Shown here piece after piece: positions 1,869 to 59,120 of a stretch of 59,420 nucleotides of DNA (its first letter is position 1; each line of letters opens with the position of its first letter). The notes beneath the pieces are model-generated. The model was not told the DNA's origin. It searched no databases and saw only the letters and a list, made by a program, of their open reading frames with translations. This DNA comes from an uncultured Rhodospirillales bacterium (GTDB lineage: Bacteria; Pseudomonadota; Alphaproteobacteria; CAZCBM01), in contig CAZCBM010000001.1 in assembly GCA_964496805.1 (NCBI GenBank), forward strand, positions 1 through 59,420. Direction: 5' to 3'. Made by a program: the position numbers and the translations under genes.

Positions 1869-3110
1869 TTAGCGCTCACGGATCCAAATCACCATGCGGC
1901 TGACTTGGGAGGCGCTGGCGTTGGCGTTGCGGTACCAACTGCCAACGAAATTGTTGTTCCTGTGGAACATGCTGTTCTGCCAACAGTTGGTGTACCACCA
2001 ACCGCCGTTGTAGCTGACATTGTTCCGCGCACAATTGCTGGACCACGTGTCATTGTCTCGGTCCCATGTGGTGAACGCCTGCCCGCGAATATCGTTACTG
2101 GTGCAGCTGCTGTAGGAATTCCGCAGGATCCAGCTGCTGCCGCAGCCGCCCCAACTGATCGCATAGGTGCTGCCTGAGATACTGAAATCCGTGTGGCTGA
2201 GATCAGGGTCGCCGTTGCCGCCCTGGTTGTCGATAAAGAAGTCGTTTTGGCTGTAGGTGCTGGTAAAGGCGGACCATGCCCCCAGGGGCATCCAATAAAA
2301 CCCAGTGGAAGGCGACGGGGTGCCATAGCCGTTCTGGGTGTACATGTCCCACCCGCCAGCGGCCACGGTCGTCCCGTCTGTCGCCGTCACGGTTGCGCTG
2401 CCATCGCCGCCCACCGCCAGCTTTTCAGAACTGGACATTCCGGTGGCCGACGTTGCCAGCAGCATCCAGCCACCCCCATCGCGGGATTGGTCACAATAAA
2501 CCTCCAGCGGCCCAAAACCGAAATCCACGGTATAGGTACCGCTGCCGGTCTGGCCACTGTCCAACAGGGCCTTGCAACTGGTGGCGGTGGTGACGCTGAC
2601 GGAAACGGTTGCGGTGTCTGATCGGCCGTCCGCCCCTTGAACGGTATAGCTAAACTGGACCCCACTGGCGGCCGAAGGAGTGACCTGGATGGCCGAACCG
2701 CCCAGGCTGACACTGGTGCCAACGGCGCCGCCAACCCCGGTTATGCGCAACCCCTCGCCGTCATCATTTGATAGAAGGTCCTCTAGCGGAACGCTGAGGA
2801 TGGCCCCCAATTGGATGGGGCCAACCGTGTCATCGCTGGCGCGCGTGGCCTCAAAGTCGGGGGCAGGGGTTGCCCTGGTGCCGTCCAGGGTGCTGGCAAC
2901 ACCGGTGAACAGCTCAGTCGTGCTTTCACCAACTCTATTTACGGCCGTCAGGGCCCCCAAGGCGATCAGACCAACCCCCAAGGCATAGGTCAGCGCCGTG
3001 GCGCCCCGACGCCTGCCGTTGCTTGAATGCATGTCCTGGCCCAAAGCACTCACCCCTGCCTGCGGATACCCATGGGCGGAAGGTGTGACCCCCTCAGCAG
3101 AGGCTGTCAA
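1869..3110 (-). CDS. secreted/pilin-like protein: Flp-type N-terminus, cadherin-like module and fibrinogen-related C-terminal domain
   Basis: N-terminus RRRGATALTYALGVGLIALGALTAV is collinear with the Flp pilin leader plus helix. Middle region has LLSNDDGEGLRITGV...FSYTVQGADGRSDTATVSVSV. C-terminus has LEVYCDQSRDGGGW and FTTWDRDNDTWSSNCA...NGGWWYTNCW. Alternative start at ATG 3032 (MHSSNGRRRG). Confidence 0.75.
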   Translation of the reverse strand: MTASAEGVTPSAHGYPQAGVSALGQDMHSSNGRRRGATALTYALGVGLIALGALTAVNRVGESTTELFTGVASTLDGTRATPAPDFEATRASDDTVGPIQLGAILSVPLEDLLSNDDGEGLRITGVGGAVGTSVSLGGSAIQVTPSAASGVQFSYTVQGADGRSDTATVSVSVTTATSCKALLDSGQTGSGTYTVDFGFGPLEVYCDQSRDGGGWMLLATSATGMSSSEKLAVGGDGSATVTATDGTTVAAGGWDMYTQNGYGTPSPSTGFYWMPLGAWSAFTSTYSQNDFFIDNQGGNGDPDLSHTDFSISGSTYAISWGGCGSSWILRNSYSSCTSNDIRGQAFTTWDRDNDTWSSNCARNNVSYNGGWWYTNCWQNSMFHRNNNFVGSWYRNANASASQVSRMVIWIRER

Positions 3111-29839: not shown

Positions 29840-31285
29840 GTGGCCCATAAGCACCGCAAGAAGCCTGTCCCTCCGACCGCCGGTGCTGCCACCGCGGACC
29901 AGGAGTCCGCTGAACAGATTGCGGACCAGGAGTCCGCTGACCAAAAAACGGATCGGGGGTCTGCCGCCTCAGCCGCGGGGGATCAAGGTTGGACCGATGC
30001 GACGCCCGCGCTCTATAGCCATGCAGCCCTGCAACAGGCCCAAGACGGGGAGACGGCAGACGCCGACAGTCCGCAGCAGCCTGAAGGGCTGATGGACAAG
30101 TTGGCCCGCATGGCCCGTACCGCCGCCTCCACCATGGGCGAACTCTGGCGCGGGGAGCGAGAGCGCGGCGTCCTGGATCGCAGCTACAATGACAAGGCGA
30201 AACCCTGGTTTGGCTTCGGCAAGCGGCCTGTCTATCGGGTGCTGGCCATCGATGGCGGCGGGATTCGCGGCCTTGTCCCTGCCCGCGTCCTGGAAGAGAT
30301 CGAACGCCGCACCGGCAAGCCCATCGCCAAGCAGTTTGATTTGATCGCCGGCACCTCCACCGGCTCCGTCATCGGCCTGGGCCTCAACGTCCCCAGTCCC
30401 GAGGACCCGACCCAGCCAGCCTACAGTGCCGCTCAGGTGGCGCGCCTGTATGCTGAAGATGGCCAATCCATCTTTCCGCCCTCGCGGTTCAAGGCCTTTC
30501 GGCAGATGATGGGCCCAGCCTATGACGCCGCACCGCTGCGCGAGAAACTCCAGGCGATGCTGGGCGACACGAAGATGAGTGAGTCCCTCACCAACGTCAT
30601 TGTCCCGGCTTATGACATTGAACGGGGCGATGCGCTCAGCCTGCGCCATATCCGCAACCTGAAGGGCGCCTCCGATCCCGACTATGCAATGGCCGATGTG
30701 GCCGCGGCCAGTTCAGCGGCGCCAACGTATTTCCCGCCCCACCGCTTCACCAGCGTCGATGGGCGGGAGAGTCACGCCTGCATCGATGGCGGCGTGATCG
30801 CGCGAAATCCAACGCTGTTCGCCCTGACCCAAGCCATTAAGCTTGCCCCCAAGGACGCCCGGATTGAGATGGTGAGCCTGGGGACCGGGTCCTATCCGCC
30901 GAAAATCCCCTATGAGAAGGCCGAGAAGTGGGGGGCGGTGGAGTGGGCCAATCCCCGTGCCGGCTCGCCCATGATCGGGGTGATGATGGATGGTGCCTCG
31001 GAGATGGCCAATCGCTTGGCCGAGCGACTGTTGGGCGATGGGTTCTTGCGCCTGGACATGGACATCGACCAGATGCCGGAGGGTCCCACCCGGCCCAGCG
31101 GGCACCTGGACGACGCCAGCCCAAAAAATGTGGCGCGGCTGGAGGCCTTTGCAAAGAAGCTGATCACGGACAACAGCGACACCATCGATCGGATTTGTGC
31201 CACCATCGATCCCAGCTACACCCCTCAACCGGCTCCCCCGCACAGCGTTGCTGGACCAGCTGCGGCACCGGGGCCGGCGCGGTGA
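29840..31285 (+). CDS. patatin-like phospholipase with N-terminal basic/acidic extension
   Basis: DGGGIRG oxyanion motif, GTSTG nucleophile elbow and IDGGVIARNP catalytic Asp. GTG start gives MAHKHRKKP. Later starts such as MDKLARMA cannot be excluded. Confidence 0.85.
   Translation: MAHKHRKKPVPPTAGAATADQESAEQIADQESADQKTDRGSAASAAGDQGWTDATPALYSHAALQQAQDGETADADSPQQPEGLMDKLARMARTAASTMGELWRGERERGVLDRSYNDKAKPWFGFGKRPVYRVLAIDGGGIRGLVPARVLEEIERRTGKPIAKQFDLIAGTSTGSVIGLGLNVPSPEDPTQPAYSAAQVARLYAEDGQSIFPPSRFKAFRQMMGPAYDAAPLREKLQAMLGDTKMSESLTNVIVPAYDIERGDALSLRHIRNLKGASDPDYAMADVAAASSAAPTYFPPHRFTSVDGRESHACIDGGVIARNPTLFALTQAIKLAPKDARIEMVSLGTGSYPPKIPYEKAEKWGAVEWANPRAGSPMIGVMMDGASEMANRLAERLLGDGFLRLDMDIDQMPEGPTRPSGHLDDASPKNVARLEAFAKKLITDNSDTIDRICATIDPSYTPQPAPPHSVAGPAAAPGPAR
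29894..29940 (+). repeat. 20-nt unit repeated at 27-nt period inside the patatin N-terminal extension
   Basis: GCGGACCAGGAGTCCGCTGA occurs at 29894-29913 and 29921-29940. It encodes ADQESAEQI/ADQESADQK. Confidence 0.8.
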
Positions 31286-34042: not shown

Positions 34043-34981
34043 TCACCGCCCAAAGGTCTTGAACCCCACCAAGGCGGCCTCGCCCTCCGTCTCATCCTGG
34101 CCCAGGCTGACCACGCCCACATCCGGCAGGTCCATCATCTCCCGGATCAGACTGATCCGACGGCCCGGCAGGATGACATAGGTGCCATTGCGCGAGTGAT
34201 CCTTGATGGACAACCGCCCACGCTCAAGGCTCATGGTGGCATGTTCACGGGAGGTGTTGTGGCAGCGGACGGTCACATCGCAATGCTCGCTGCGACCCAG
34301 GAGGATGCGGGGATTGTCCACGGAAAGCTCTGCCATCTCGCCCTGGTAATCCAGGATCACCCGCAGCCGGGCAAATTGGGCCTGAGGTTGAGCAGCGGCC
34401 ACCTCAGAGGGGTCCATAAAGATCGTGGGGCTCTCCGTCTCATCGGCCTCCACGGCCTCTTCCTGCTCGCGCAGAGTGGGATCGGAGAGGAAGAAAAGAT
34501 CCACGGGCTCCTGCCGTCCCCGCAGCGTGACCCTTTTGAGCGGCTCAAACCGGATGCCGCCCGGGGGTTGAATGCCAAACGCGTCCACCACTGCGCCGCT
34601 GGCCAGGGTCTCCGACGCCCGGGCCAAGCCAGAAATGCGGGCCGCGCAATTGACCACGTCCCCAAAAATATCGCCGGTGTCGTCCAACAGGACGTTCCCA
34701 TGGTCCAGGCCGATCTTAATGCGAATGCGATTATCGTGGCCGGTCATAATGGCCCGTACCGCTGCTACGGCATCATGGGGTGTAGAGAAACGGCACAGCA
34801 CCCCATCGCCCAGGGTCTTCACCACGACGCCACCCGTACGGGCGATCTGCTGGACCATCGCCTCCACCCCGCCAGTCACGAGGCGGGCGGCTGTCTCGTC
34901 GCCCAACACCTCATACAGGCGTGTGCTGTCCTGGATGTCCGCAAACATCACGGTGTTTATGAGCGATGCAGCCTCGGCCAT
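34043..34981 (-). CDS. class III adenylate/guanylate cyclase fused to C-terminal FHA domain
   Basis: CHD pattern (VMFADIQDSTRLYE, KTLGDGVLCRF, GDIFGDVVNCAARI). The C-terminus ILLGRSEHCDVTV...SREHATMSLERGRLSIKDHSRNGTYV is FHA-like. Start taken at ATG 34981; 35032 or 35059 are also possible. Confidence 0.8.
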   Translation of the reverse strand: MAEAASLINTVMFADIQDSTRLYEVLGDETAARLVTGGVEAMVQQIARTGGVVVKTLGDGVLCRFSTPHDAVAAVRAIMTGHDNRIRIKIGLDHGNVLLDDTGDIFGDVVNCAARISGLARASETLASGAVVDAFGIQPPGGIRFEPLKRVTLRGRQEPVDLFFLSDPTLREQEEAVEADETESPTIFMDPSEVAAAQPQAQFARLRVILDYQGEMAELSVDNPRILLGRSEHCDVTVRCHNTSREHATMSLERGRLSIKDHSRNGTYVILPGRRISLIREMMDLPDVGVVSLGQDETEGEAALVGFKTFGR

Positions 34982-35315
34982 GGCAGCCTCGTGGCAGGGA
35001 TAGGGGTTTCGGATTACCCGCAAAGGGGCCATCTCTCGGGTGTTATCGACATTTATCAATGTCCCCTGAGATGGAAAGGCGGTTTAGCATGGCCACGGCT
35101 ATGCGCCAACGGTCAAGCAACGGCCGTCCCGAACCGTTCTGGCGGCAAACAGCGGGCAAGGGGAAAGACGTCTGCCCTAAAGGCCAAGGGCGAACCTCAA
35201 GCGCCTCCGGAGGGGTGATTTTGCTTGGGCCTTTCGGCATTTGCGGCCAGTTTCAGGGGTGTCAGCCGCCCTGATCCCAATTCCCTGGATCCCATGCCCT
35301 GGAGAGGACCCCACG

Positions 35316-36356
35316 ATGGCGAAGCATCGCAAGAAGCCGCAAAAGAGCCATCAGAAGGCAACGCCCCAGGCCTCTGGTCCCAGTGGCATGGAGCAAAAGT
35401 TTGGCGCCTGGGGTATCGATATGAAGGAGGTGACCTTCACCAAGTCACCCACCAAGACGGCCCGTTCCGCCTTCAAGGAGGTACGCCGCGGCTTCCTCCA
35501 GCACTTGGCCGAGAACTACAGCGATGAATTGCGCAAGGCCGGCCTGAGCGAGGCGCAGATCGACACCATGCGCGATCAGGGTCGCAGCCCCCCCAACATG
35601 AATGTCCACCACAAGCTGCCCTTGAGCGGCGGTGGCAAGAATGTCTGGGATAACTTGGTCCTCATCCCGATTGAGCCGCATCACAGCGCCATCCATCGGC
35701 ACAGCGATCCGCAGATCGTGGACCTGGGCAAGGGTCAGAGCCGCACCATTGTGATGGCATGGCCGGCCGGGCCGATCTATGCGCCCAAGCATCCAGATAT
35801 GTGGAAGGGCCGCGATATGGACGCGATCATGGCGGCTGCCCAAAAGGGCCAGCGGCTGGACGCCCCGGCACAGCAGCAGCCCTCCGTATCCGCCCCAACC
35901 CGTGCACCGCGGGTGATTGAATCCTCCGCGCCGGTGGCACAGGCCCCATCGGCCGCAGCCCCGGCAAAGCCCGCGGCTGATCCTGCCGCAGCGCCCGCTG
36001 CCCCGTCCAATGACGGCTACGGGTGGGCTTTGGGGGAAGAGGACGCCCGCCCTTCGCGGTCCCTGGCGCCTCCCTCCCACCAGGCATCGGCGCAGCCGGC
36101 GGCCTCGGATGACGACGCTGCCCACGGTTGGACCCTGGATGGGGCCGAAACCGGCAGCAACCCGGCGCCTGCTCGCCCTTCCGCCCCCAAGTCCCCGCCC
36201 AAAGGCGACGATGCTGAGGGCTTTGGCTGGACGCTGGGTGTCAGTGAGGATGCCCCGGCCAGCAGCAAGGGGCATCGCAAACCCCAGAAGCCAGCAAAGA
36301 AGACCTGGGTCGAGTCCTTCGATCCCAATCAGATTTCCACGCCGCGAAGGCGCTGA
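35316..36356 (+). CDS. HNH-motif nuclease domain protein with long Ala/Pro-rich tail carrying repeated acidic-GW motifs
   Basis: ATG 35316 with GGAGAGGA upstream. HNH core NVHHKLPLSGGGKNVWDNLVLIPIEPHHSAIHRH (aa 97-129). The tail contains DGYGWALGEED, AAHGWTLDGAE and AEGFGWTLGVSED. The C-terminus is basic. Confidence 0.7.
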   Translation: MAKHRKKPQKSHQKATPQASGPSGMEQKFGAWGIDMKEVTFTKSPTKTARSAFKEVRRGFLQHLAENYSDELRKAGLSEAQIDTMRDQGRSPPNMNVHHKLPLSGGGKNVWDNLVLIPIEPHHSAIHRHSDPQIVDLGKGQSRTIVMAWPAGPIYAPKHPDMWKGRDMDAIMAAAQKGQRLDAPAQQQPSVSAPTRAPRVIESSAPVAQAPSAAAPAKPAADPAAAPAAPSNDGYGWALGEEDARPSRSLAPPSHQASAQPAASDDDAAHGWTLDGAETGSNPAPARPSAPKSPPKGDDAEGFGWTLGVSEDAPASSKGHRKPQKPAKKTWVESFDPNQISTPRRR

Positions 36357-36627
36357 ACGGGCTTGGCGGACAGGGGCCGTTCGGGCTAGAGGCTCCGGGG
36401 GAAAGAGCGTTTCTGCCCCCGGCGCCAACGCCGCTGTCCTCAGGGTTTAGACAGCACCTCGAGGTCGGGCTGCATAGTGAGCCGTGGCCCCACCGCTCCT
36501 GTGGACGCTGCTTCCGTGGCGCCGTTCTGTGGCGCTGTTCCGTGTCGACGCTTTTTCTGGACGCCTTCTCTGGATTCGGTGGTGCCGTCAACGCCGTGAT
36601 ATGTGTCATCAGCAAGGACTGATCCCA

Positions 36628-37062
36628 ATGTATGAGCCGATCCTTGAACGCCTGGCCGCAGAGGCCATCCTGTTCCCACCCGCCACGGTGGAAGAGGTCA
36701 GCAGCCTCCAGGACGGGTTGAAGGCGGCACAGCTGTCCGGCATCCCCCAGTCGTACGGCCAGTTTCTGCTGGAGAGCAACGGCTTCGCCTGGAACGGCGT
36801 CCAGTTCTATGGCACGCGGGAGATGGTTGAGCCGGCCGATCCGTTGACCCTGCCTTCGTTAATCCAGGCCCATCAGCGCATCGCTGACATCCGCCCTGAT
36901 CTGGCGCCTTGGCAGGTGATCGGTGCAGCCGACGACGACCTGTATGTCTTTGACACGGAGAAGAAGACAGCCGCCGTGCTGGACCGCTCCACCTTTGAAG
37001 TCATCGAAGAATATCGCAGCTTTGGCGACCTGTTCGAGGCGGTGATCGAGGAATATAGCTGA
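36628..37062 (+). CDS. SMI1/KNR4 (SUKH)-family immunity-like protein
   Basis: ATG 36628. GIPQSYGQFLLESNGFAWNGVQFYG...VIGAADDDLYVFD...EEYRSFGDLFEAVIEEY matches the SUKH/YrhA-like pattern. Confidence 0.65.
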   Translation: MYEPILERLAAEAILFPPATVEEVSSLQDGLKAAQLSGIPQSYGQFLLESNGFAWNGVQFYGTREMVEPADPLTLPSLIQAHQRIADIRPDLAPWQVIGAADDDLYVFDTEKKTAAVLDRSTFEVIEEYRSFGDLFEAVIEEYS

Positions 37063-37964: not shown

Positions 37965-37985
37965 GGTTGGGTGTCCGGGGGTGGC

Positions 37986-38057
37986 GTTGGCGGTGCCGAC
38001 AGGGTGGCCGTTGGCGGTGCCGACAGGGTGGCCGTTGGCGGTGCCGACAGGGTGGCA
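37986..38057. repeat. 24-bp tandem repeat x3 (GTTGGCGGTGCCGACAGGGTGGCC)
   Basis: Two perfect copies and one copy with a single change, followed by a partial fourth. It lies in the divergent cinA-like/sfsA intergenic region. Confidence 0.9.
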
Positions 38058-38145
38058 TTGGCGGCGCTGAGTCGGTAGCCCGAACGCCGGTCGCTGGCAA
38101 GCGCCTGTGCCGCTGTCCCTTTTGACTCTTTGCCCATGATGGACC

Positions 38146-42633: not shown

Positions 42634-43483
42634 TGTGCATCTGGCTGTGATCCATCAAGGCAGGGGCATGGCCGCAGCCTGCAATTTCAGCGATCGTTGC
42701 CGGCTCACCCGTTTTGGCTCCGACCATCTCCCGGGCGACTTCCGCGGGCAGCAGGTCACTGTCCTCGCCCCGCAGAATCAGGGTCGGTGCCTGGATCGCT
42801 TGCCAGAGGGGCCCAAGGTCCAGATCGGTGTTGCCGTTGGGCTGGATCGCCGCCCCTATGGCCGGATCATAGTGCAGACCCCAGCCCTGCCCCTGCGGGC
42901 GGACTGACGTCTCAGCCAGGTGTCGCCATTGGGCGTCACTCAGGGCACCAAACGGGGCATGAACCCGCCGCAGGTGGGCCTCCACCTCTGCCATGCTGTC
43001 GAACCGCTGGGGCGCGGCCTGCATGTAGGCCCCGATCCGATCCAGGGCTGCCGCCGGGATCACCGACCCCACATCGTTGATCACCAACCGCCGCACGGGG
43101 CTGAGCGGGTCAGCGGCCAGGACAAAAGCGATCAGCCCGCCCATGGAGGTTCCCACCCAGTCCACTTCGGTCAGCCCAAACGCGTTGAGCATATTCACGA
43201 TGTCGGCGGCATACTGGCCAGGATGGTAGTGCTGGGGATCGCGCAGCCAATCGCTGCCCCCGCGCCCCACCATATCCGGGCACAGCACCCGCCGCCCCTG
43301 CCCGGCCAGATGGGCCGCCAGAGCATCAAAGTCCCGTCCCGTGCGGGTCAGCCCATGCACGCACACCACCGGTGGCAATTCAGGCCCTGCGGTGCACACG
43401 GGCTCGTGAACATGGACGTTCAGGCGATGCAGGCCAGCCGGGCTGGAACAGAGGACGGAACGGGTATAGGTTTCGTTGGACAT
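42608..43483 (-). CDS. alpha/beta hydrolase
   Basis: VVCVHGLTRTGRDFD, GTSMGG, GCGHAP. Start at ATG 43483 or 43510. Confidence 0.75.
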   Translation of the reverse strand: MSNETYTRSVLCSSPAGLHRLNVHVHEPVCTAGPELPPVVCVHGLTRTGRDFDALAAHLAGQGRRVLCPDMVGRGGSDWLRDPQHYHPGQYAADIVNMLNAFGLTEVDWVGTSMGGLIAFVLAADPLSPVRRLVINDVGSVIPAAALDRIGAYMQAAPQRFDSMAEVEAHLRRVHAPFGALSDAQWRHLAETSVRPQGQGWGLHYDPAIGAAIQPNGNTDLDLGPLWQAIQAPTLILRGEDSDLLPAEVAREMVGAKTGEPATIAEIAGCGHAPALMDHSQMHIVSSWIGS

Positions 43484-43576
43484 TGCTTTCCCATTTTCAG
43501 CACCCATCATCGGCTTGCCACCCCTGACGGGTCGCGCCTAGACTGTCTACCGTCCTCTTTGATCACCGGAGCCCTC

Positions 43577-44341
43577 ATGTCCGCGATTACCGGCAAAGTC
43601 ACGCAGCTGGTGAATTTTTACCGCTCCAGCGCCTTGCCGTGCCCCTACATCCTTGGCCAACTGGAACGCAAGTTGTTCACCCGGCTGCCGGGGCAGGATG
43701 TGGATAACCTGAATGGCAGCCTGACCGTTGGCGGTTTCCGCCGGTCTCACGAGTTTGTCTACCGGCCCATTTGCGATCATTGCTCCGCCTGCAAGCCCGT
43801 TCGCATTCGTGCGGAGGCCTTTGCGCCGTCCCGCAACGTCAGGCGTCTGTTCAAGAAGAATGCCGACCTAGTGATGCGCGAAGCGCCCTGTGTGCCCACG
43901 AGCGAGCAGTATCGGCTGTTCGCCCGATATCAGGCCCGGCGTCATGGGGACGGGGACATGGCCAGCATGGGCCCGGAAGACTATGCGGCCATGATCCGCG
44001 AAGGCAGCGAGCATTCGTCCCTGATGGAGTGGCGGTTGGGGGAGGCGCTGGTGGCAGTGATCCTGATCGACCATGTGGAGGGGGGCATCTCCGCTGTGTA
44101 CAGCTTTTTCGATCCGGCGATGCCCGAACGCTCCCTCGGCCGGCATATGGTGAACGCCTTGGCGCACTGGGCGCGGGAGGAGGGGCTGAGACACGTCTAC
44201 CTTGGCTACTGGATCGCACAGTCCCGCAAAATGGCCTACAAGGCTGAGTTCCAGCCCTTGGAGGTGCTGGAAGGCGGCCATTGGATCCCCTTTGAGGGGA
44301 GCATGGCGCAGCGTGAGAGCCAGGGCGTCGAAACGCGTTGA
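43577..44341 (+). CDS. bpt: arginyl/aspartyl-glutamyl-tRNA--protein transferase (bacterial ATE homologue)
   Basis: ATG 43577 inside ORF 42920..44341. LPCPYILGQLERK, GFRRSHEFVYRPICDHCSACKPVRI, YLGYWI. Confidence 0.85.
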   Translation: MSAITGKVTQLVNFYRSSALPCPYILGQLERKLFTRLPGQDVDNLNGSLTVGGFRRSHEFVYRPICDHCSACKPVRIRAEAFAPSRNVRRLFKKNADLVMREAPCVPTSEQYRLFARYQARRHGDGDMASMGPEDYAAMIREGSEHSSLMEWRLGEALVAVILIDHVEGGISAVYSFFDPAMPERSLGRHMVNALAHWAREEGLRHVYLGYWIAQSRKMAYKAEFQPLEVLEGGHWIPFEGSMAQRESQGVETR

Positions 44342-47645: not shown

Positions 47646-48125
47646 ATGATGTTGAAAAATGTGGTTCTGAGCCTGCTGCTGATCATCGGATCTGCCTCTC
47701 TGGCGCAGGCCCAGACCGCCGACTTGGGGCCCGATGGGCCAGCGTCTCTGTTGGCCACCTATGAGGCATTCGCTGCCGCACAGAATGATCGTGATCTTGA
47801 TCGGGTGGGGCAATTCTTCATCGATGGACCTGAGTTCCTGTGGGTCTCCGATGGTCAGTCCTTCTGGGGACGGGAAGCCGTCCTGGCACGCATGGGCCGC
47901 TTTCAAGGGGCGGATATCTGGCGGGTTCTCCCTGACTTAGACACCGCCAGGATTGTTCCCCTGTCGCAAGACAGTGCTTTCCTGCACCTGTCCTTGGTGT
48001 TGGAGATTGGGTCGGATCCCCGCCCGAACCGCTTGGGGTTCCTGGTCACAATTCTGTTTGTTAAGCAGGAAAGTGCGCCATGGCGCATTGCAGCATTGCT
48101 CACCACCCGCGAGAAGAACCAGTAG
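47646..48125 (+). CDS. secreted SnoaL/NTF2-like (DUF4440-like) protein
   Basis: ATG 47646 inside ORF 47253..48125. Signal peptide MMLKNVVLSLLLIIGSASLAQAQ. The fold assignment is tentative. Confidence 0.5.
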   Translation: MMLKNVVLSLLLIIGSASLAQAQTADLGPDGPASLLATYEAFAAAQNDRDLDRVGQFFIDGPEFLWVSDGQSFWGREAVLARMGRFQGADIWRVLPDLDTARIVPLSQDSAFLHLSLVLEIGSDPRPNRLGFLVTILFVKQESAPWRIAALLTTREKNQ

Positions 48126-48200
48126 TGGCGACGCAGGCCCAAGGGGCTGTCCGCCCGGCGCAGCCGCCCTCGCCGTGACCGGGCCATGGAGGACTGAGAC

Positions 48201-49446
48201 ATGCTCTATTTGGTTCAAGGGGCTCTACGGGGGGATCGGCCGCGGGACATTATTCGTCGCTCCACCATCATCGGGATCATCAGCTTTCTTACGCTGATCG
48301 ACTTGTTCGGCAGCCAGGCCTTGCTGCCCCGGCTGGTGGTTGCGTTCGACACCGACCCTGGGTTCATGGGCCTCGCGGTGAACGCGGCCACGCCGGGCAT
48401 GGCGCTGTCTGGCCTGCTGGTGGCATAGTTTGCAGACCGGATTGACCGTAAGCGCGGCATCTGGATCAGCCTTGCCTGCCTGAGTGTCCCGACGGCATTG
48501 CTGGGGGTTGTGGACTCGGTCAACCTGTTCATGGCGCTCAGGATTGCCCAGGGCGTGTTCATGGCGGCAGCCTTCACGCTGACCATGACTTATCTGTCGG
48601 AGCAGTGCGATGTGACCGCCGCCGGTGGAGCCATGGCCGCCTACATCACCGGCAATGTTGCCTCCAACCTGCTGGGTCGCATCATGGCGGTGAGTGCCGC
48701 CGATGGGCTGGGCCTCAGCGGTTCTTTCTTCGTCTTTGCCGCTCTCAACCTCGTGGGCGCGCTGCTGGCCTTTACGCTGGTGGGGGCCCGGGATAACGAG
48801 CGCCCGGTGCGGACGGGATCGCCGGCGGCCGCCTGGCGTCAGCATATGGCCCATCCGGCACTGCGGGCCGCCTTTGTGATGGGGTTCGCCATCCTGTTCA
48901 TCTTCGTGGGTGTCTTCACCTATGTGAACCTGCATCTGACCCAAGCCCTGGGCATCGATGAGGCGTTGCTGGGCGTGGTCTACTTGGTGTTTCTGCCGGC
49001 CCTGATCACGACGCCCTATGCATCGCGGGCGGTGAGCCACTTTGGACCGAAGCGGGTGTTCCAGGTGGCGGGGGGGGGGCTGCCTCGCTGGGACCGGCCT
49101 CACTTTGATCCCCGCACTGCCACCGGTTCTGGCGGGCCTCGCCGTGATTGGCGCTGGCACCTTCTTTATGCAGGCCGCCGCCACGGGATTTGTCGGCCGA
49201 ACCGCGCTAACCAATAGGGCGGCTGCCAATGGGCTCTATCTCACCAGCTACTATGTAGGTGGCCTTGTTGGGGCGTTGGCGTTGGGTCAGGCCCACCTGA
49301 TCGGCCAGTGGCCGCTCATCGCGGCCATTGTGTTGGCCGTCCTGGCAGGCCTTATCCTGCTGGCTCGGTTCTTGGGTAACCCTGGGCCGGAGGTGCGCCC
49401 GCTGGCGGAACAAGCGACGGCATCGTCGGCGGCATCTGGCTCCTGA
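48201..49446 (+). pseudogene. MFS transporter disrupted by an in-frame TAG and a frameshift at a G10 tract
   Basis: Three ORF pieces are collinear with one 12-TM MFS protein. TAG at 48426-48428 interrupts the motif-A region (GLLVA*FADRIDRKRG). A frame change occurs at the G-run 49070-49079. Confidence 0.7.
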
Positions 49447-49562
49447 GCCCGTTGCCTTGCCGATGATTCAGGCATTAGGCCTTGGCTGGCCGTCTGCTGC
49501 AGGTGTACGGTTATGACAAATGCGTCTTTCAACCCTTTGTCTCGCCTGTATGAGGTCGTACC

Positions 49563-50165
49563 ATGTCCACAGTCCCTATGGCCCGCTTTCTGGTGCTGGC
49601 TCCCTTGAGCCTCCTGGCCCTCAGCGTCCCTGCCCTTGCCCATGCTGGCGAGGGGCTTGGGGGCGGCTTCGTGAGTGGCTTTTCGCATCCGGTGCTGGGA
49701 TGGGACCACGTGGTGGCCATGGTGGCCGTGGGCCTGTGGGGGGCTTTCCTGGGTAAGCCCGCGCTTTGGATCCTGCCCATTGCTTTTCCCCTGGTGATGA
49801 CGTTGGGGGCTGTTCTGGGCATCCTCGGCGTGCCTGTCCCTGAGGTCGAGGTGGGCATCGCCGCTTCCGCTATTGTCCTGGGCGGGCTGATCGCCACAGC
49901 CGCTCGGTTGCCTGTGGTGGCCGCTGCCGTGGTCGTTGGGCTGTTTGCTGTCTTCCATGGCCATGCCCATGGCACAGAGTTGCCCGCCGCCACCAATGCG
50001 GCGGCCTATGCAGTAGGATTTGTGCTGGCCACGGGCCTGTTGCACTTGGCCGGGATCGCCTTGGGCGTGCTGGTACGTTGGCGGATGGGCCGGCTGGCCG
50101 TGCGTGCCGGCGGCGTCGGCATTGCGGCCCTGGGGGTGTTGTTCCTCAGCCGTGCCCTGGCGTAA
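49563..50165 (+). CDS. HupE/UreJ-family metal (Ni/Co) transporter
   Basis: Signal peptide followed by HAGEGLGGGFVSGFSHPVLGWDHVVAMVAVGLW and FHGHAHGTE. Confidence 0.8.
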   Translation: MSTVPMARFLVLAPLSLLALSVPALAHAGEGLGGGFVSGFSHPVLGWDHVVAMVAVGLWGAFLGKPALWILPIAFPLVMTLGAVLGILGVPVPEVEVGIAASAIVLGGLIATAARLPVVAAAVVVGLFAVFHGHAHGTELPAATNAAAYAVGFVLATGLLHLAGIALGVLVRWRMGRLAVRAGGVGIAALGVLFLSRALA

Positions 50166-50193
50166 AGCGCGCGGCCTCTTCAAACGCTCTTTC

Positions 50194-50886
50194 GTGGGCC
50201 GGAGTCTCTTCCTGGCCCTTCCGGCGATTGTCTTCAGCAGCCCCGCCTCTGCCCATGGTCTGCCCAATGGGTTCGAGGGGGTGAGTCTTGGTGCCGAGAT
50301 TGTCCTCGGCAGCCCCTATACCCTCCTTCCAGCGGTGGCTGCGGGCCTGTTGATTGGCCAGCACCCCTTCAGTCGCCTAGCCTGGACTTGGGCGGCGCTG
50401 GCCGGAGGGCTGGCCCTTGGCAGCATTGCCGCCATCCTCGTAACCCTGAGGCTGATCCCGGCCCCGGTCTTCACCCTGTTGGTCTGGTCCCTGTATGGCG
50501 TGATGGGATTGGCCGCGGCGGCAGCCCTGCTGGCCGCCGCCCTGCCCCGGCTGCCACTGGGGGTGAGTGTCGGGTTGATCGCTGCCCTCGGGGCCCTCAC
50601 CGGGGTCTTGGCCTCCGATGATCATGCCGACGCTGACACCGGCGGTCTGGTGGCGTTGCTTTGCGGCTATGCGGTGGCGGGGCAGATGGTCCCGGCGGGT
50701 CTGGGTTGCTTTGCGGCGGCGCTGCGGGAGGCGTGGCCCTCATCGGCCTGGGTGGGCATCGGCTTGCGCATTGTTGCGGCCTGGACAGCGGCCATTGCCG
50801 TGCTGATCCTGACCGTCGATGCCACCGCGCCTGTGTGGAGCGAGGAGCCCCAGCCTACTGAGGCCATGACCGCATCAGGGCTGTGA
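50194..50886 (+). CDS. integral membrane protein (weakly HupE/UreJ-like topology)
   Basis: GTG 50194 inside ORF 50020..50886. Signal-like N-terminus ...SSPASAHG followed by about 6 TM helices. Both the start and the family are uncertain. Confidence 0.4.
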   Translation: MGRSLFLALPAIVFSSPASAHGLPNGFEGVSLGAEIVLGSPYTLLPAVAAGLLIGQHPFSRLAWTWAALAGGLALGSIAAILVTLRLIPAPVFTLLVWSLYGVMGLAAAAALLAAALPRLPLGVSVGLIAALGALTGVLASDDHADADTGGLVALLCGYAVAGQMVPAGLGCFAAALREAWPSSAWVGIGLRIVAAWTAAIAVLILTVDATAPVWSEEPQPTEAMTASGL

Positions 50887-51751
50887 CCTTGGCGTAGTTC
50901 TGCGCGACTTGGTCCAGTTCACCCCCATCGCGGAACAGCTGCTTATCCAGTTGCCGATGGGGGTCGCCGTTGGGCCATAGCCGCCAGCTGTCGTTGTCCA
51001 CCACGTCGGCGATCATCGGGTGCCCCTGCGCGTCCAGCCCCACCTCCATCTTGCAATCGGCCAGCACCAGCGGGCCGTCCGGCGCCGGCACGGCGGCCCA
51101 GGTTTGCTCCAGCACCTGGAAGGCAGGCAGGATGAGCTCCCCCATGATCCGGGCGAACAAGGCCGCGCTGACCGGGGCGGGGATACGGATCAACGGTGTG
51201 CCCTGAACCGGGGCTTTGGCAGAGTACAGCGCCCAGTGGTCCGACGCCCGGACGCAGTAGGGGTCTGTGTGGACACCGTCGGCCCAGGCGCCCTGGTGCA
51301 GATACCGCTGCCGGGCCGCGCCCTCCTCCATCACCTGCGGCTGCGCCACCGCCGGGGGGACCAGGGCAGCGTGCTTGTGGAAAACCTCGCTCACCAGACA
51401 CGCGAACCGCTTCGGTGGCCCATCAGCGGCGGGGGTAGCCTCCGGATGCCGCTTGAGGTAGCTGCCGAATGCAAAGCGCCGCACCACAAATTCCAGCGGC
51501 AGCATGTCCACCGCGCGGCACAGCAGGCGGTCCGGTGGCATATGATCCAGGAAGGCCGTTGCAATACCCGCAGCAGACAAGGTGCGAAAAACGATCGCCG
51601 CCTGTTCGGTCTTCTCCTGCCCCAAGGATGCGATCTCCGCCCGCCGCGCGGCGTCCCCGGCGGTCAGCCCGTCATTCGTCACCAACCAGACCGTATCCGG
51701 CTCCGGCCCCTGGACGATGGTTTTGGTTTTGCCAGCCGCCAGAACGGTCAT
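50855..51751 (-). CDS. divergent SAICAR synthetase-like protein
   Basis: Start at ATG 51751, overlapping the upstream stop (ATGA). GKTKTIV, LPLEFVVRRFAFGSYLKRHPE, LADCKMEVG, DNDSWRLWP, LDKQLFRDGG. It has a long insertion relative to typical PurC. Confidence 0.7.
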   Translation of the reverse strand: MTVLAAGKTKTIVQGPEPDTVWLVTNDGLTAGDAARRAEIASLGQEKTEQAAIVFRTLSAAGIATAFLDHMPPDRLLCRAVDMLPLEFVVRRFAFGSYLKRHPEATPAADGPPKRFACLVSEVFHKHAALVPPAVAQPQVMEEGAARQRYLHQGAWADGVHTDPYCVRASDHWALYSAKAPVQGTPLIRIPAPVSAALFARIMGELILPAFQVLEQTWAAVPAPDGPLVLADCKMEVGLDAQGHPMIADVVDNDSWRLWPNGDPHRQLDKQLFRDGGELDQVAQNYAKVTALMRSWPQ

Positions 51752-56729: not shown

Positions 56730-59120
56730 TCACGGCGCTGTGTCGCGGGGATACAGATGGACGGCTCCCGCCTCCTCATCCTCGCGGTTGTCGCCGGGGG
56801 CTGCCACCAGCAGGGCGCTGGGGATCACAGCAACCCGGCGGCCAAAACTGGGCTCCGTGCCCTGCCCTGTCGGTGCCTGTGGGTTACGAAAGATGCTGCT
56901 CAGTTGCCAAGGCATGTCCGCCCCAGCACGCTGATAGAGGTACGCCCCGGGTCGCGCTTCGGCCTCCCCCGGCTGACCGGGCGCCCCCACCAGCAGCGTG
57001 GTCTCATCCATACCAAGGCTAACCCCGAAGGCCACGGGACCGTCCAGGGGTTGGGCTTGCAGGCTTTGCTGCACGGTCCAGTCCGCCAAGGGGGCTCCCC
57101 TCTGTGCGGGTGCCAGACTATGGACCTGCCGTGCTCCCGGTGCCGCCACCAGCAGGTGTTCCCCATCCAGGGCCAGGGTCGCCCCGAACCCATCACCGGG
57201 GCGGGACTGTGGGGCCGACAAGGTGACGGCCGGGGCAAGGGTGACGGCCCAGGGATTCGACCGCTGGTAGATATCCACCCGACCAGGCGTGTTGTCGTCG
57301 CCTGGAGAGCCCACGAACAAAGCGGTCTCCGTCAGCAGCAACGAGGCTGCAAAGCGGGCAACCCCCACAGGAGGCGCCTCCACCTGGCTTGGAAAGGTGC
57401 CAGTGAGGGGCGTCAACAGCACCGGCCCCCCCTCTGCGGCGCTGGCCAGCAGCGCCTGATCGGCCACGGCTGCCACCGGCCCGTTGCCATGGCGGACCTC
57501 AACCAGATCGACCACCGTTGAGGGAACGGCCGGGTCCAGCAACCGCACTTGCAGCGTCCTGGTCGCCGAGCCCTCGGCGGATGTGTCCTCAGCGGATGTG
57601 TCCTCAGCCGGAGTGCCCTCAGTGGGAGTTCCGTCACTGGGGGTTTCTGTCCGGGCCGGCCCGCCCTTGGGAGAGATCAGCAGCAGCTTGTCCCCTTCGA
57701 CAACCGTGCCGAGCCTCACCCTATCTCCGCTCACGTCCAAGGCAGGCCAACTATCACCCACCAGGATCCCCAGGCGAGAAATCCCATCCGCATTGCCCAG
57801 TCGCACGGCGTCCACCCGGGCCAAGCCGGCCAACGCAGGGTCCATGGGGACACTCAACACATAGGCTTCGTCCCCCACAACACCCAGGTCCCACCCCAGC
57901 CGAGCGCCGGCTGTGGTGCCAATCAGCGTCTGAGGCTCCAGGTCGGCGGAGGGTGCGGCCGGAGGCGGCGTTGCGGTGGTGGTGGGCTCACCAGCAGCAC
58001 TGTCGGTCTGGGCCATCAGGCTGGAGGCCGTCTGCTGCCCCAGATGCCCCTGGGCGTAGCGCGCCACCGCCCATCCCAGGCCCAGCAACACAAGGATCAA
58101 AACCAGGCCTGTGGCCACCGGCGCCTTGCGGCCCCCTTTGACCTCAAGATCCGGCGCCATGCCCGGGCTAGCGGGCGTCGCAGGGGCATCGTCATCGATG
58201 CTGGTGATCTCGGCGGTTAACCACGTCCGAGCGCCTGCTGGCGGGGGCGGCGCCGGCTCGGCCGCCACATTGGCCAGCGACGGATCCAAAAGGGCCAGCA
58301 ACTGGGATCCGCTGCCGGCACGGTGTGCCGGATCAGGGGTTAGCCCAGCGATGAGCATGGGCCGCAGCCAGTCCGGCACGAAGGAGAGGTCAGGGGCCGC
58401 CTGCCGCGCGGTCACCGCATCGGTGAAGCCGGAGCCTTCAAACAGCGGGCGGCCGGTGGCGGCGAACAGGATCACCACGCACAGGCTGTACAGATCAGTC
58501 TTGGGGCCAATGGTGCGCGCCCCGCCGAACAAACCCATCTGCTCCGGCGCGGCATAGCGCAGTTTGCCCGCAAACCGATCCCCAATGACCGTGGCGGCGT
58601 CATCGTCCGCCAAGTCCTTTGAGATGCCAAAATCAATCAAGGTGGCCTTGGCCACTTCATCGTCGCGCAGAATGATGTTGTCCGGCGCAAGATCCCGATG
58701 CACCACGCCAAGGGCGTGCAGGGCATCCATGGCCGGCAGCAGCCGGCGGCACAGCGCCACAATGTCCGCCTGCGACAGGGGCGAGGTCTCCAAAGGGCTG
58801 GGCTTCACCCGCTGCTGCAGGGACGGCCCCTCCACATAGTCCATGACCAGGATCAACTGCCCATCCGGGCTTTGCTGGATGCCATAGCACCGGACCACCG
58901 CTTCCACATTCAGTTGGATCAGGCGCCGCGCCTCCCGCCGGAACAACTCCGCGGCGGTCTCGTTCAGGCTGCCCTCGTGCAGGGCCTTCAGGGCGTAGAC
59001 AGTGCTGTCGATGGACGGGTCGAAGCTCTCCGCCTTATAGACGGTGGCGAAACCTCCCTGGGCGACCTCGCCCAGAACCCGATAGGTGTTGTTGAGGATA
59101 TCCCCGGGATGCAGCGGCAC
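56730..59120 (-). CDS. receptor-type Hanks Ser/Thr protein kinase with extracytoplasmic FG-GAP-like repeats
   Basis: Kinase motifs GGFATVYKA, YALK, HRDLAPDN, DFGISK and YAAPEQ. One TM helix (LVLILVLLGLGWAV). The C-terminal region has repeated LLV(G/A)APG...G.V.LY motifs. GTG start with GAGGG upstream. Confidence 0.85.
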   Translation of the reverse strand: MPLHPGDILNNTYRVLGEVAQGGFATVYKAESFDPSIDSTVYALKALHEGSLNETAAELFRREARRLIQLNVEAVVRCYGIQQSPDGQLILVMDYVEGPSLQQRVKPSPLETSPLSQADIVALCRRLLPAMDALHALGVVHRDLAPDNIILRDDEVAKATLIDFGISKDLADDDAATVIGDRFAGKLRYAAPEQMGLFGGARTIGPKTDLYSLCVVILFAATGRPLFEGSGFTDAVTARQAAPDLSFVPDWLRPMLIAGLTPDPAHRAGSGSQLLALLDPSLANVAAEPAPPPPAGARTWLTAEITSIDDDAPATPASPGMAPDLEVKGGRKAPVATGLVLILVLLGLGWAVARYAQGHLGQQTASSLMAQTDSAAGEPTTTATPPPAAPSADLEPQTLIGTTAGARLGWDLGVVGDEAYVLSVPMDPALAGLARVDAVRLGNADGISRLGILVGDSWPALDVSGDRVRLGTVVEGDKLLLISPKGGPARTETPSDGTPTEGTPAEDTSAEDTSAEGSATRTLQVRLLDPAVPSTVVDLVEVRHGNGPVAAVADQALLASAAEGGPVLLTPLTGTFPSQVEAPPVGVARFAASLLLTETALFVGSPGDDNTPGRVDIYQRSNPWAVTLAPAVTLSAPQSRPGDGFGATLALDGEHLLVAAPGARQVHSLAPAQRGAPLADWTVQQSLQAQPLDGPVAFGVSLGMDETTLLVGAPGQPGEAEARPGAYLYQRAGADMPWQLSSIFRNPQAPTGQGTEPSFGRRVAVIPSALLVAAPGDNREDEEAGAVHLYPRDTAP
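57578..57652. repeat. 15-nt tandem repeat (2 perfect and 3 degenerate units) inside the kinase ectodomain linker
   Basis: CGGATGTGTCCTCAG x2 followed by diverged units. On the minus strand it encodes the pentapeptide repeats TPTEG/TPAED/TSAED/TSAEG. Confidence 0.8.

Follow-up and report, generated by a model that had tools for sequence, protein, structure and literature searches.

Two adjacent genes in a 59-kb stretch of the genome of an uncultured Rhodospirillales bacterium (59,420 nucleotides; referred to here as the window, to which all window-wide negative results apply) encode a standalone HNH nuclease-like protein (gene 1) and a SUKH (SMI1/KNR4) superfamily protein (gene 2). We consider it probable that they form a nuclease and cognate inhibitor pair, fixed and vertically inherited, in which the nuclease is deployed outside the cytoplasm of its producer while the SUKH protein protects the producer. 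The two protein families are paired in toxin loci of other genomes, the gene pair itself is conserved in relatives, and both genes are under strong purifying selection, on par with their flanking genes. The nuclease was interpreted as an exported effector because all other contexts of its domain are those of delivered toxins, and because it carries terminal elements without an obvious catalytic role.

The nuclease gene and its catalytic domain

Gene 1 sits in an open reading frame (ORF) at 35241..36356 on the forward strand, with the stop codon ending at 36356. The peptide strings that the sequence-only reading, introduced below, had cited for the two genes were all recovered. Its start was assigned to the ATG at 35316, which is preceded by a Shine-Dalgarno-like run (GGAGAGGA) and agrees with the public gene calls for the protein itself (P0001, 346 aa) and for its ortholog P0002 (343 aa). 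The GC content at third codon positions was 0.76 for gene 1 and 0.73 for gene 2, similar to the rest of the window. A classification of gene 1 as an orphan cassette or pseudogene was rejected, given its own ribosome-binding site, its intact catalytic residues and a ratio of non-synonymous to synonymous substitution rates (dN/dS) of 0.05.

The catalytic core (NVHHKLPLSGGGKNVWDNLVLIPIEPHHSAIHRH, residues 96-129) contains no cysteine, in agreement with an earlier interpretation of this DNA made from the letters alone (the sequence-only reading), which had described an HNH core without zinc cysteines. The same reading had called the domain atypical, which did not hold, as HNH domains of the toxin and colicin type normally lack these cysteines (PMC3113570). 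Across 64 diverse family members, H98, N109, N113 and H123 were invariant, and H99 nearly so. An AlphaFold2 model of gene 1, built on an alignment of 42 relatives, gave predicted local distance difference test (pLDDT) values above 90 for residues 25-160 and contained a beta-beta-alpha core in the His-Me finger arrangement, comprising strands 95-99 and 114-118 and a helix at 119-134. By these conserved HH-N-N-H residues and the predicted beta-beta-alpha fold, the gene 1 product is an HNH/His-Me finger superfamily member.

A sequence search of the PDB with gene 1 returned weak local matches to Cas8-HNH, McrA and pyocin AP41. The best local Foldseek matches, covering approximately 57 residues at E-values of 0.12 or weaker, were to the HNH domains of Cas8-HNH, Gme and McrA; as these matches were weak and local only, the PDB has no counterpart of the scaffold that surrounds the HNH core. 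No Pfam or NCBIfam model names the HNH domain family of gene 1, and nine of the 64 relatives reached an E-value of 0.001 or lower with the Pfam HNH model (best 7e-5).

The SUKH gene and the spacer

The gene 2 product scored 70.5 bits (E 1.4e-19) with the NCBIfam model for the YrhA family (NF038335), the cutoff of which is 55 bits, and matched Pfam SMI1_KNR4 and SUKH_6 at sub-threshold levels only. The AlphaFold2 model of the protein, made from the shallower of two SUKH alignments (mean pLDDT 81.6), superposed in Foldseek on YobK of B. subtilis (2prv; E 1.4e-6, TM-score 0.70), on SMI1/KNR4 BF1740 (3d5p), 2icg and 2pag and, more weakly, on Syd (3ffv). By the curated cutoff and the predicted alpha+beta fold, gene 2 encodes a YrhA-family member of the SUKH superfamily, as had been proposed from sequence. 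The two products are of opposite charge, with an isoelectric point (pI) of 9.6 for the nuclease domain and 4.1 for the SUKH protein.

The start of gene 2 was assigned to the ATG at 36628, which is preceded by a conserved AAGGA (AAGGA-N8-ATG) in the window and in the ortholog locus L001. A longer version starting at a GTG at 36484 was rejected, as this stretch is broken by indels and a deletion in L001. The earlier measurement of a 271-bp same-strand spacer between the genes proved exact. Compared with L001, approximately 45 nt after the stop codon and approximately 55 nt before the SUKH start are conserved, with indels between. A scan of the spacer for a sigma-70-like site found none, and only a weak terminator-like hairpin was seen at 36530-36547; Rfam, promoter and terminator scans of the spacer and the window gave nothing convincing, with no Rfam match in the spacer. 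The features of the locus are listed in Table 1.

Table 1. Coordinates of the two genes, their elements and the patatin-like gene in the window.
Feature	Coordinates	Strand	Basis
Patatin-like phospholipase gene	29840..31285	+	Pfam Patatin, 5.6e-27
Gene 1, standalone HNH nuclease, 346 aa, class-B architecture	35316..36356	+	ORF, start, ortholog P0002
Basic N-terminal segment, aa 1-24, MAKHRKKPQKSHQK..., pI 11.4	35316..35387	+	Conserved in P0002
HNH toxin domain, aa 25-165	35388..35810	+	AlphaFold2 pLDDT >90, conserved catalytic residues
Catalytic core, aa 96-129	35601..35702	+	Sequence; weak Pfam HNH match
Disordered Ala/Pro-rich tail, aa 181-346 (166 aa)	35856..36353	+	pLDDT ~42-56, no secondary structure
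GW motif 1, DGYGWALG	36012..36035	+	DGFGWSLG in P0002, flanks variable
GW motif 2, HGWTLD	36123..36140	+	HGWSLD in P0002
GW motif 3, GFGWTLG	36219..36239	+	Identical in P0002
Basic C-terminal end, GHRKPQKPAKKTWVESFDPNQISTPRRR, last residue Arg	36270..36353	+	Conserved in P0002
Spacer, 271 bp	36357..36627	+	Conserved ends, indels mid-way
Gene 2, YrhA-family SUKH protein, 144 aa, pI 4.1, putative inhibitor/immunity	36628..37062	+	NF038335 match

Polymorphic toxin relatives and their SUKH partners

An exhaustive HMMER search with residues 1-175 of gene 1 identified 507 cluster representatives at an E-value of 1e-3 or lower, 192 of them at 1e-10 or lower; word-indexed homolog searches with both proteins recovered only the proteins themselves and one ortholog. 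The N-terminal modules found among the 64 relatives included PAAR, prePAAR, RHS, LXG/WXG100, PT-HINT, PT-TG, Phage_Mu_F (MuF) and Mu portal, and one family member matched Col-Pyo_DNase. Elsewhere the domain family thus serves as the C-terminal warhead of T6SS, T7SS, RHS and MuF polymorphic toxins. In 65 of the 149 best representatives (class A), no more than 10 residues separate the end of the domain from the C-terminus, and the typical ending is ...WPIPxGxVYPP. All four class-A toxins that were then examined are followed, approximately 10-15 bp downstream, by a gene for a YrhA-family protein of 150-152 aa (E-values with the YrhA model of 1.5e-24 to 1.8e-52). These four represent different delivery types, namely a Mu-portal fusion, a 1069-aa protein in a cluster resembling a type III secretion system (T3SS), a Firmicute LXG protein and a prePAAR-PAAR protein. 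Furthermore, the HNH domain (336-474) and a YrhA/SUKH domain (518-653) are joined in one protein of 656 aa, P0117, which is either a natural toxin-immunity fusion or a read-through gene call.

As the class-A toxins were paired with a YrhA gene in four of four cases and P0117 holds both domains, comparative evidence is strong that the HNH family and the YrhA/SUKH family would act as cognate toxin and immunity protein. HNH toxins paired with SUKH proteins were first outlined by Zhang, Iyer and Aravind in 2011 (PMC3113570). The suggestion in the sequence-only reading of a toxin-immunity pair was thus upheld: the domain is a polymorphic-toxin warhead whose class-A members are accompanied by a YrhA gene.

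Two further observations were made among the relatives. The 1069-aa class-A toxin and its YrhA gene (L064, 4001-7675) lie inside a T3SS-like or flagellar-export-like cluster with YscD-like and FHIPEP genes, on a metagenomic contig of 69% GC, an unusual context for a polymorphic toxin. Tandem copies of the HNH domain were seen in several proteins (three in P0016 and P0113; two in P0004, P0005 and P0011), separated by charged low-complexity linkers and with degenerate catalytic residues in some copies.

The standalone subfamily

A second group (class B), in which the domain is followed by a tail ending in arginine, accounted for 51 of the 149 best representatives, and a profile search added 88 more proteins. 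Class-B proteins are mostly alphaproteobacterial, with a median length of 222 aa. Their layout consists of a basic N-terminus (often Y-x-H-x-K-R), a G-x-x-L-K-E-V-x-Y-x-V-P strand, the HNH domain and a tail of 11-86 residues that is amphipathic over a short stretch and basic at its end. The last residue was Arg in 113 of 139 class-B ORFs (81%), against 8% of the other ORFs in the fetched loci, and the commonest ending was 'GR'. No other proteins with the class-B end motifs were found in approximately 600 kb of loci from metagenome-assembled genomes (MAGs).

The window protein fits this class, starting with MAKHRKK and ending in ...STPRRR. With 181 residues after the domain, its tail is unusually long and is exceeded by only one other in the Arg-terminal group. 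The inverted architecture noted in the sequence-only reading was confirmed: the domain is N-terminal and Pfam found no trafficking domain (RHS, PAAR and filamentous domains all being absent). This arrangement is not a one-off, since 51 of the 149 best representatives share it, and it is characteristic of the class-B subfamily. Linkage of the two genes elsewhere was also found: class-B genes with an adjacent SUKH gene occur in genome L069 and in the gammaproteobacterial MAG L062, in addition to L001 and distant Alphaproteobacteria MAGs.

The disordered tail and terminal motifs

The Ala/Pro-rich disordered tail, put earlier at about 165 aa, measured 166 aa with 37% Ala plus Pro, and its basic end was confirmed. 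The tail is 66.7% identical to that of P0002 with a dN/dS of 0.40, against 95.6% and 0.046 for the HNH domain. This diverging tail nevertheless retains three GW motifs, an HRKxQKP stretch and its final 20 residues. The GW repeats are flanked by acidic residues and spaced approximately 34 residues apart (DGYGWALGEE, AAHGWTLDGAE and EGFGWTLGVSED), and all three are conserved in P0002, which ends in ...STPGMR. The enrichment of the terminal Arg and the retention of the motifs in a diverging tail indicate that the terminal elements and the GW motifs are probably under selection.

The first GW motif fits the core of the TolB box of colicins (D-G-x-G-W), which reads DGSGW in ColE9 and DGTGW in ColA (PMC2821528). 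This resemblance raises a specific version of the exported effector, a colicin-like diffusible bacteriocin in reversed order, in which the GW tail would mediate Tol-dependent translocation by capturing TolB in the periplasm of the target, and killing would be the task of the N-terminal HNH domain. The intrinsic disorder of the tail, the conservation of the three GW motifs between diverging linkers and the resemblance of the HNH core to colicin and pyocin DNases are in keeping with such a protein. The full D-G-x-G-W is present in only one of the three motifs, however, and the protein has no receptor-binding domain, lysis gene or plasmid context; moreover, its immunity protein is of the SUKH rather than the Im type, and the short class-B relatives have no tail. 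We judge this version to be the least probable of the alternatives weighed here.

The basic C-terminus could alternatively be a coupling-protein signal for a type IV secretion system (T4SS) of the VirB/D4 type encoded elsewhere in the genome, as in the effectors of Agrobacterium and the X-Tfe proteins of Xanthomonas. An N-terminal effector followed by a basic C-terminal signal is the layout of such substrates, Arg is strongly enriched at the class-B C-terminus, and the tandem paralog arrays described below recall effector families. A C-terminal Arg motif is also shared by the Agrobacterium VirB/D4 substrates (PMC10025392). Against this, T4SS genes were seen neither in the window nor near any of the class-B genes whose surroundings were inspected, and the protein has no XVIPCD or BID domain. 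Nor is the Agrobacterium consensus known to call for an Arg in the final position, which also counts against a T4SS substrate. We regard this alternative as very unlikely.

Motifs shared with a patatin-like phospholipase

The gene for a patatin-like phospholipase lies approximately 4 kb upstream of the HNH gene. Its product starts with MAHKHRKKP, so that KHRKKP is common to both proteins. A GDQGWT motif stands out as conserved in its acidic linker, which varies elsewhere, and the protein finishes in ...GPAR. The patatin ortholog P0237 keeps each of these elements, including the C-terminal Arg. When the window was translated in all six frames, H-[RK]-K-[KP]-P was present only at the N-termini of the HNH and patatin proteins. 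The KHRKKP codons of the two genes differ at synonymous sites, and the similarity is therefore at the level of the protein; a comparison of the DNA upstream of both genes found nothing shared. A rough estimate of the chance that two of approximately 43 proteins share an exact N-terminal hexapeptide was 0.002-0.02. Among the matches listed in a metagenome scan for starts of the form ATG-Ala-(x)-KHRKKP, all were of the chance type and none was an effector-like protein. The patatin gene has no adjacent immunity-like gene.

These similarities suggest that the HNH and patatin proteins, two unrelated enzymes of the effector type, may share a targeting or recognition element, and the phospholipase might then be another protein of one targeting class. 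In its broadest form, which we put forward tentatively and think rather unlikely, the polybasic N-terminus (MAKHRKKP; Y-x-H-x-K-R in relatives), the acidic-flanked GW motifs and the C-terminal Arg would constitute an undescribed targeting or export code for unrelated alphaproteobacterial effectors (HNH, patatin and up to six paralogs), with a delivery route outside the known secretion systems and a single SUKH protein serving as pan-inhibitor.

Conservation and genomic context

Among approximately 5.8 billion clustered proteins, P0002 was the only close homolog of the window nuclease. This protein, from a Logan assembly, is 81% identical by BLASTP and 82% identical in a MAFFT alignment. The window and L001 share the gene order cyclase-FHA, HNH, SUKH and CinA-like. 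Between them, identity was 95.6% for the HNH domain, 93.8% for SUKH, 94.5% and 95.7% for the flanking genes and 66.7% for the tail. The corresponding dN/dS values were 0.046 for HNH (residues 1-180), 0.056 for SUKH, 0.067 for cyclase-FHA and 0.052 for CinA-like.

The cyclase gene (34043-35059, reverse strand) encodes an adenylate/guanylate cyclase that has an FHA domain at its C-terminus, and it is divergent to the HNH gene, an adjacency that is kept in L001. The window and L001 are nearly the same over approximately 115 bp upstream of the HNH start. A regulatory link between the cyclase-FHA gene and the HNH gene is possible.

A scan of GTDB species genomes with one peptide pattern, whose matches were almost only gut Alphaproteobacteria MAGs and did not include the window's own species, identified 55 loci, nearly all in gut or rumen Alphaproteobacteria MAGs. 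As many as six intact class-B paralogs are present in these MAGs, distributed over three conserved sites that comprise three genes in tandem, two genes in tandem and one single gene. The single gene (approximately 197 aa) is followed after approximately 70 bp by a gene for a 146-aa SUKH protein, and the pair lies between DTW and QueA. The SUKH gene adjoins only the single-copy paralog, leaving five of the six paralogs without an adjacent inhibitor. The gut-MAG SUKH protein is orthologous to gene 2 (35-38% identity, with FAWNG and ADDDLYV blocks in common) and is 85-100% identical across gut MAG species. Mean pairwise identity across the MAG species was 91.5% for SUKH, 82.4% for QueA, 82.0% for DTW and 72.9% for the paired HNH. 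A hyper-conserved single SUKH protein would be expected if it had to fit several nuclease paralogs. Examples of paralog loci are L002 3354-5274 (reverse strand) and L005 8598-10642 (forward strand), with many more in L008-L061.

In the window and in the class-B loci seen, the neighbourhoods consisted of housekeeping genes, and genes for secretion, phages or mobile elements were absent from them; no orphan cassettes were found in the window. By these comparisons, the two genes are a fixed and slowly evolving pair and not a polymorphic, horizontally shuffled weapon locus.

This pattern bears on two alternatives in which the nuclease acts inside the producer. One is a domesticated housekeeping nuclease, derived from a former toxin-immunity pair and employed in DNA repair, recombination, nucleoid processing or DNA scavenging with the SUKH protein as its regulator. 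Purifying selection equal to that on the flanking genes, synteny across many gut MAGs, a SUKH protein more conserved than QueA and DTW, conserved paralog arrays of three, two and one, and basic ends compatible with DNA binding are all consistent with domestication. The distribution is narrow, however, with one close homolog of the window protein among all clustered proteins; the HNH domain elsewhere is found exclusively on toxin-delivery modules; and the strict C-terminal Arg and the motifs shared with the phospholipase point to targeting over DNA binding. We find this alternative quite unlikely.

The other is an intracellular toxin-antitoxin, abortive infection or programmed DNA degradation module, in which the nuclease would stay in the cell and be freed when the SUKH protein is degraded or titrated, for example during phage infection or severe damage. 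Such a module would account for a gene 1 product without a signal peptide or trafficking domain and for the absence of secretion genes nearby. The conserved ends of the 271-bp spacer would permit separate regulation of the inhibitor, and a cyclase-FHA signalling gene adjoins the pair in both relatives. Defence and toxin-antitoxin loci are usually patchy and island-borne, whereas this pair is syntenic amid housekeeping genes and evolves at the same rate. PADLOC gave no defence-system match: the sole hit of gene 1 was a weak one (E 0.062) to a type IV restriction enzyme, in its HNH part, and the SUKH protein had none. Furthermore, an intracellular module does not sit well with the five of six gut-MAG paralogs that have no adjacent inhibitor, leaves the terminal motifs shared with the phospholipase unexplained, and runs against the delivered-toxin contexts of all other members of the domain family. 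The addiction or defence module that the sequence-only reading had offered was not borne out by the housekeeping rates, the conserved synteny and the PADLOC result, and we consider an intracellular role of this kind unlikely.

Proposed mechanism

In the interpretation that we favour, that of an exported nuclease with a cognate inhibitor, the gene 1 product would be a non-specific, metal-dependent DNase of the His-Me finger type. In the cytoplasm of the producer, the acidic SUKH protein would bind the basic DNA-binding face of the nuclease and occlude it. The nuclease would leave the producer either by release or by delivery into another cell, through a route that is not encoded nearby; this could be an undescribed delivery format, as the sequence-only reading had suggested. 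Any targeting information would presumably lie in the short elements, namely the polybasic N-terminus, the three GW motifs and the basic terminus ending in Arg.

Several observations weigh against this interpretation. There is no known export signal, no machinery nearby and a housekeeping-like evolution. The N-terminus of gene 1 has no hydrophobic segment, and the absence of a signal peptide, stated in the sequence-only reading, was borne out. The statement of that reading that the window holds no secretion-system genes was likewise confirmed by Pfam scans of 30 other window genes and a reading of the remaining translations; no lysis or receptor genes were present in the window either, and genes of these three kinds were likewise absent from the class-B neighbourhoods in other genomes. 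The identity of the HNH domain and the SUKH protein to their counterparts in L001 is similar to that of the flanking genes, with no diversification of the kind expected of a conflict system. In the gut MAGs, one SUKH gene was detected per MAG for up to six nuclease paralogs, and this SUKH protein is more conserved than the neighbouring QueA and DTW. The class-B gene P0007 has no SUKH neighbour. As to the nuclease assignment itself, gene 1 scored E 0.0021 and 18.6 bits with Pfam HNH (PF01844), below the gathering cutoff of 21.4, and a Foldseek search with the nuclease model returned no significant solved relative (best E 0.12).

Comparison with known systems

The core finding, an HNH toxin with a SUKH immunity protein, is established biology. 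The pair resembles the polymorphic toxin systems with an HNH/EndoVII fold and SUKH proteins (PMC3113570; PMC3482391) in the toxin and immunity families, the cysteine-less HNH core and the position of the immunity gene downstream on the same strand. It differs in that the toxin domain is N-terminal (25-165 of 346) with no trafficking or pre-toxin domain, and in that the spacer is 271 bp against approximately 10-15 bp in the class-A loci. Polymorphism and orphan cassettes are also absent, inheritance being vertical at housekeeping rates. The pair therefore fails two of the defining features of polymorphic toxins, a C-terminal warhead on a trafficking protein and polymorphism.

The nuclease colicins and pyocins (ColE9-Im9, pyocin S2/AP41) have in common with the window pair an HH...N...H...H DNase core without zinc cysteines, a downstream immunity gene and a disordered region with a D-G-x-G-W motif. 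The window pair differs in its reversed domain order, its chromosomal locus, the absence of a receptor-binding domain and lysis gene, and the SUKH fold of its immunity protein, the colicin Im proteins having a four-helix fold. In its architecture, the pair is no colicin-type bacteriocin.

A parallel is provided by barnase-barstar and by NucA-NuiA of Anabaena, in which a conserved, non-polymorphic nuclease is kept in check within the producer by a dedicated acidic inhibitor. Barnase and NucA have signal peptides and unrelated folds, unlike the window nuclease. The bacteria-killing X-Tfe/X-Tfi pairs of Xanthomonas and the Agrobacterium VirB/D4 substrates have an effector domain N-terminal to a positively charged C-terminus, here a candidate signal, and in the X-Tfe/X-Tfi pairs the inhibitor gene is adjacent, as in the window; the window pair differs from these T4SS effector pairs in having no XVIPCD domain and no T4SS genes in view.

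The Tox-REHH toxins, which are divergent HNH toxins (Rehh-RehhI; bioRxiv 10.64898/2026.09.22.753552), have a polymorphic HNH-type DNase warhead that is used with several secretion systems and has SUKH among its immunity families, and inhibition by an acidic, DNA-mimicking protein has been proposed for them. Compared by description, Rehh is reported to lack detectable HNH sequence similarity and to use R/E/H/H residues, whereas the window family has a recognisable HH-N-N-H core.

Textbook HNH-SUKH weapons are rapidly diversifying C-terminal warheads on large delivery proteins. The pair in the window departs from them as a small standalone pair of vertical descent that evolves as slowly as tRNA-modification genes. 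Further departures are the expansion in gut Alphaproteobacteria, where approximately six nuclease paralogs accompany one inhibitor, and the conserved terminal motifs, which a phospholipase shares here. If these motifs are a targeting code, they would offer a route into an unrecognised export or uptake pathway in a poorly studied group of bacteria from the gut and the environment; otherwise, the locus would still be a clean example of a conflict system turned core gene pair.

Other features of the window

A 21-nt unit is repeated in tandem, with three copies, at approximately 37965-38075, in the interval that separates the CinA-like gene from sfsA; in the ORF translations it gives GHPVGTAN three times on one strand and RWRCRQGG three times on the other. 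The gene at 42920-44341 (forward strand) encodes an arginyl/leucyl-tRNA-protein transferase (ATE_N, ATE_C) with an N-terminal extension of approximately 235 aa in the mechanically called ORF. AT skew was strongly negative (-0.23 to -0.38) across 48000-51000, the rest of the window lying within approximately +/-0.26, and the ORF at 49287-50267 had no Pfam match.

Two further genes on the reverse strand encode proteins of uncommon composition. The 413-aa protein encoded at 1869-3110 combines a bacterial Ig domain (Big_9) with a fibrinogen C-terminal globular domain (Pfam 2.3e-13), a domain that is mainly animal and uncommon in bacteria. The 796-aa protein encoded at 56730-59120 is a eukaryotic-type Ser/Thr protein kinase with C-terminal FG-GAP repeats.

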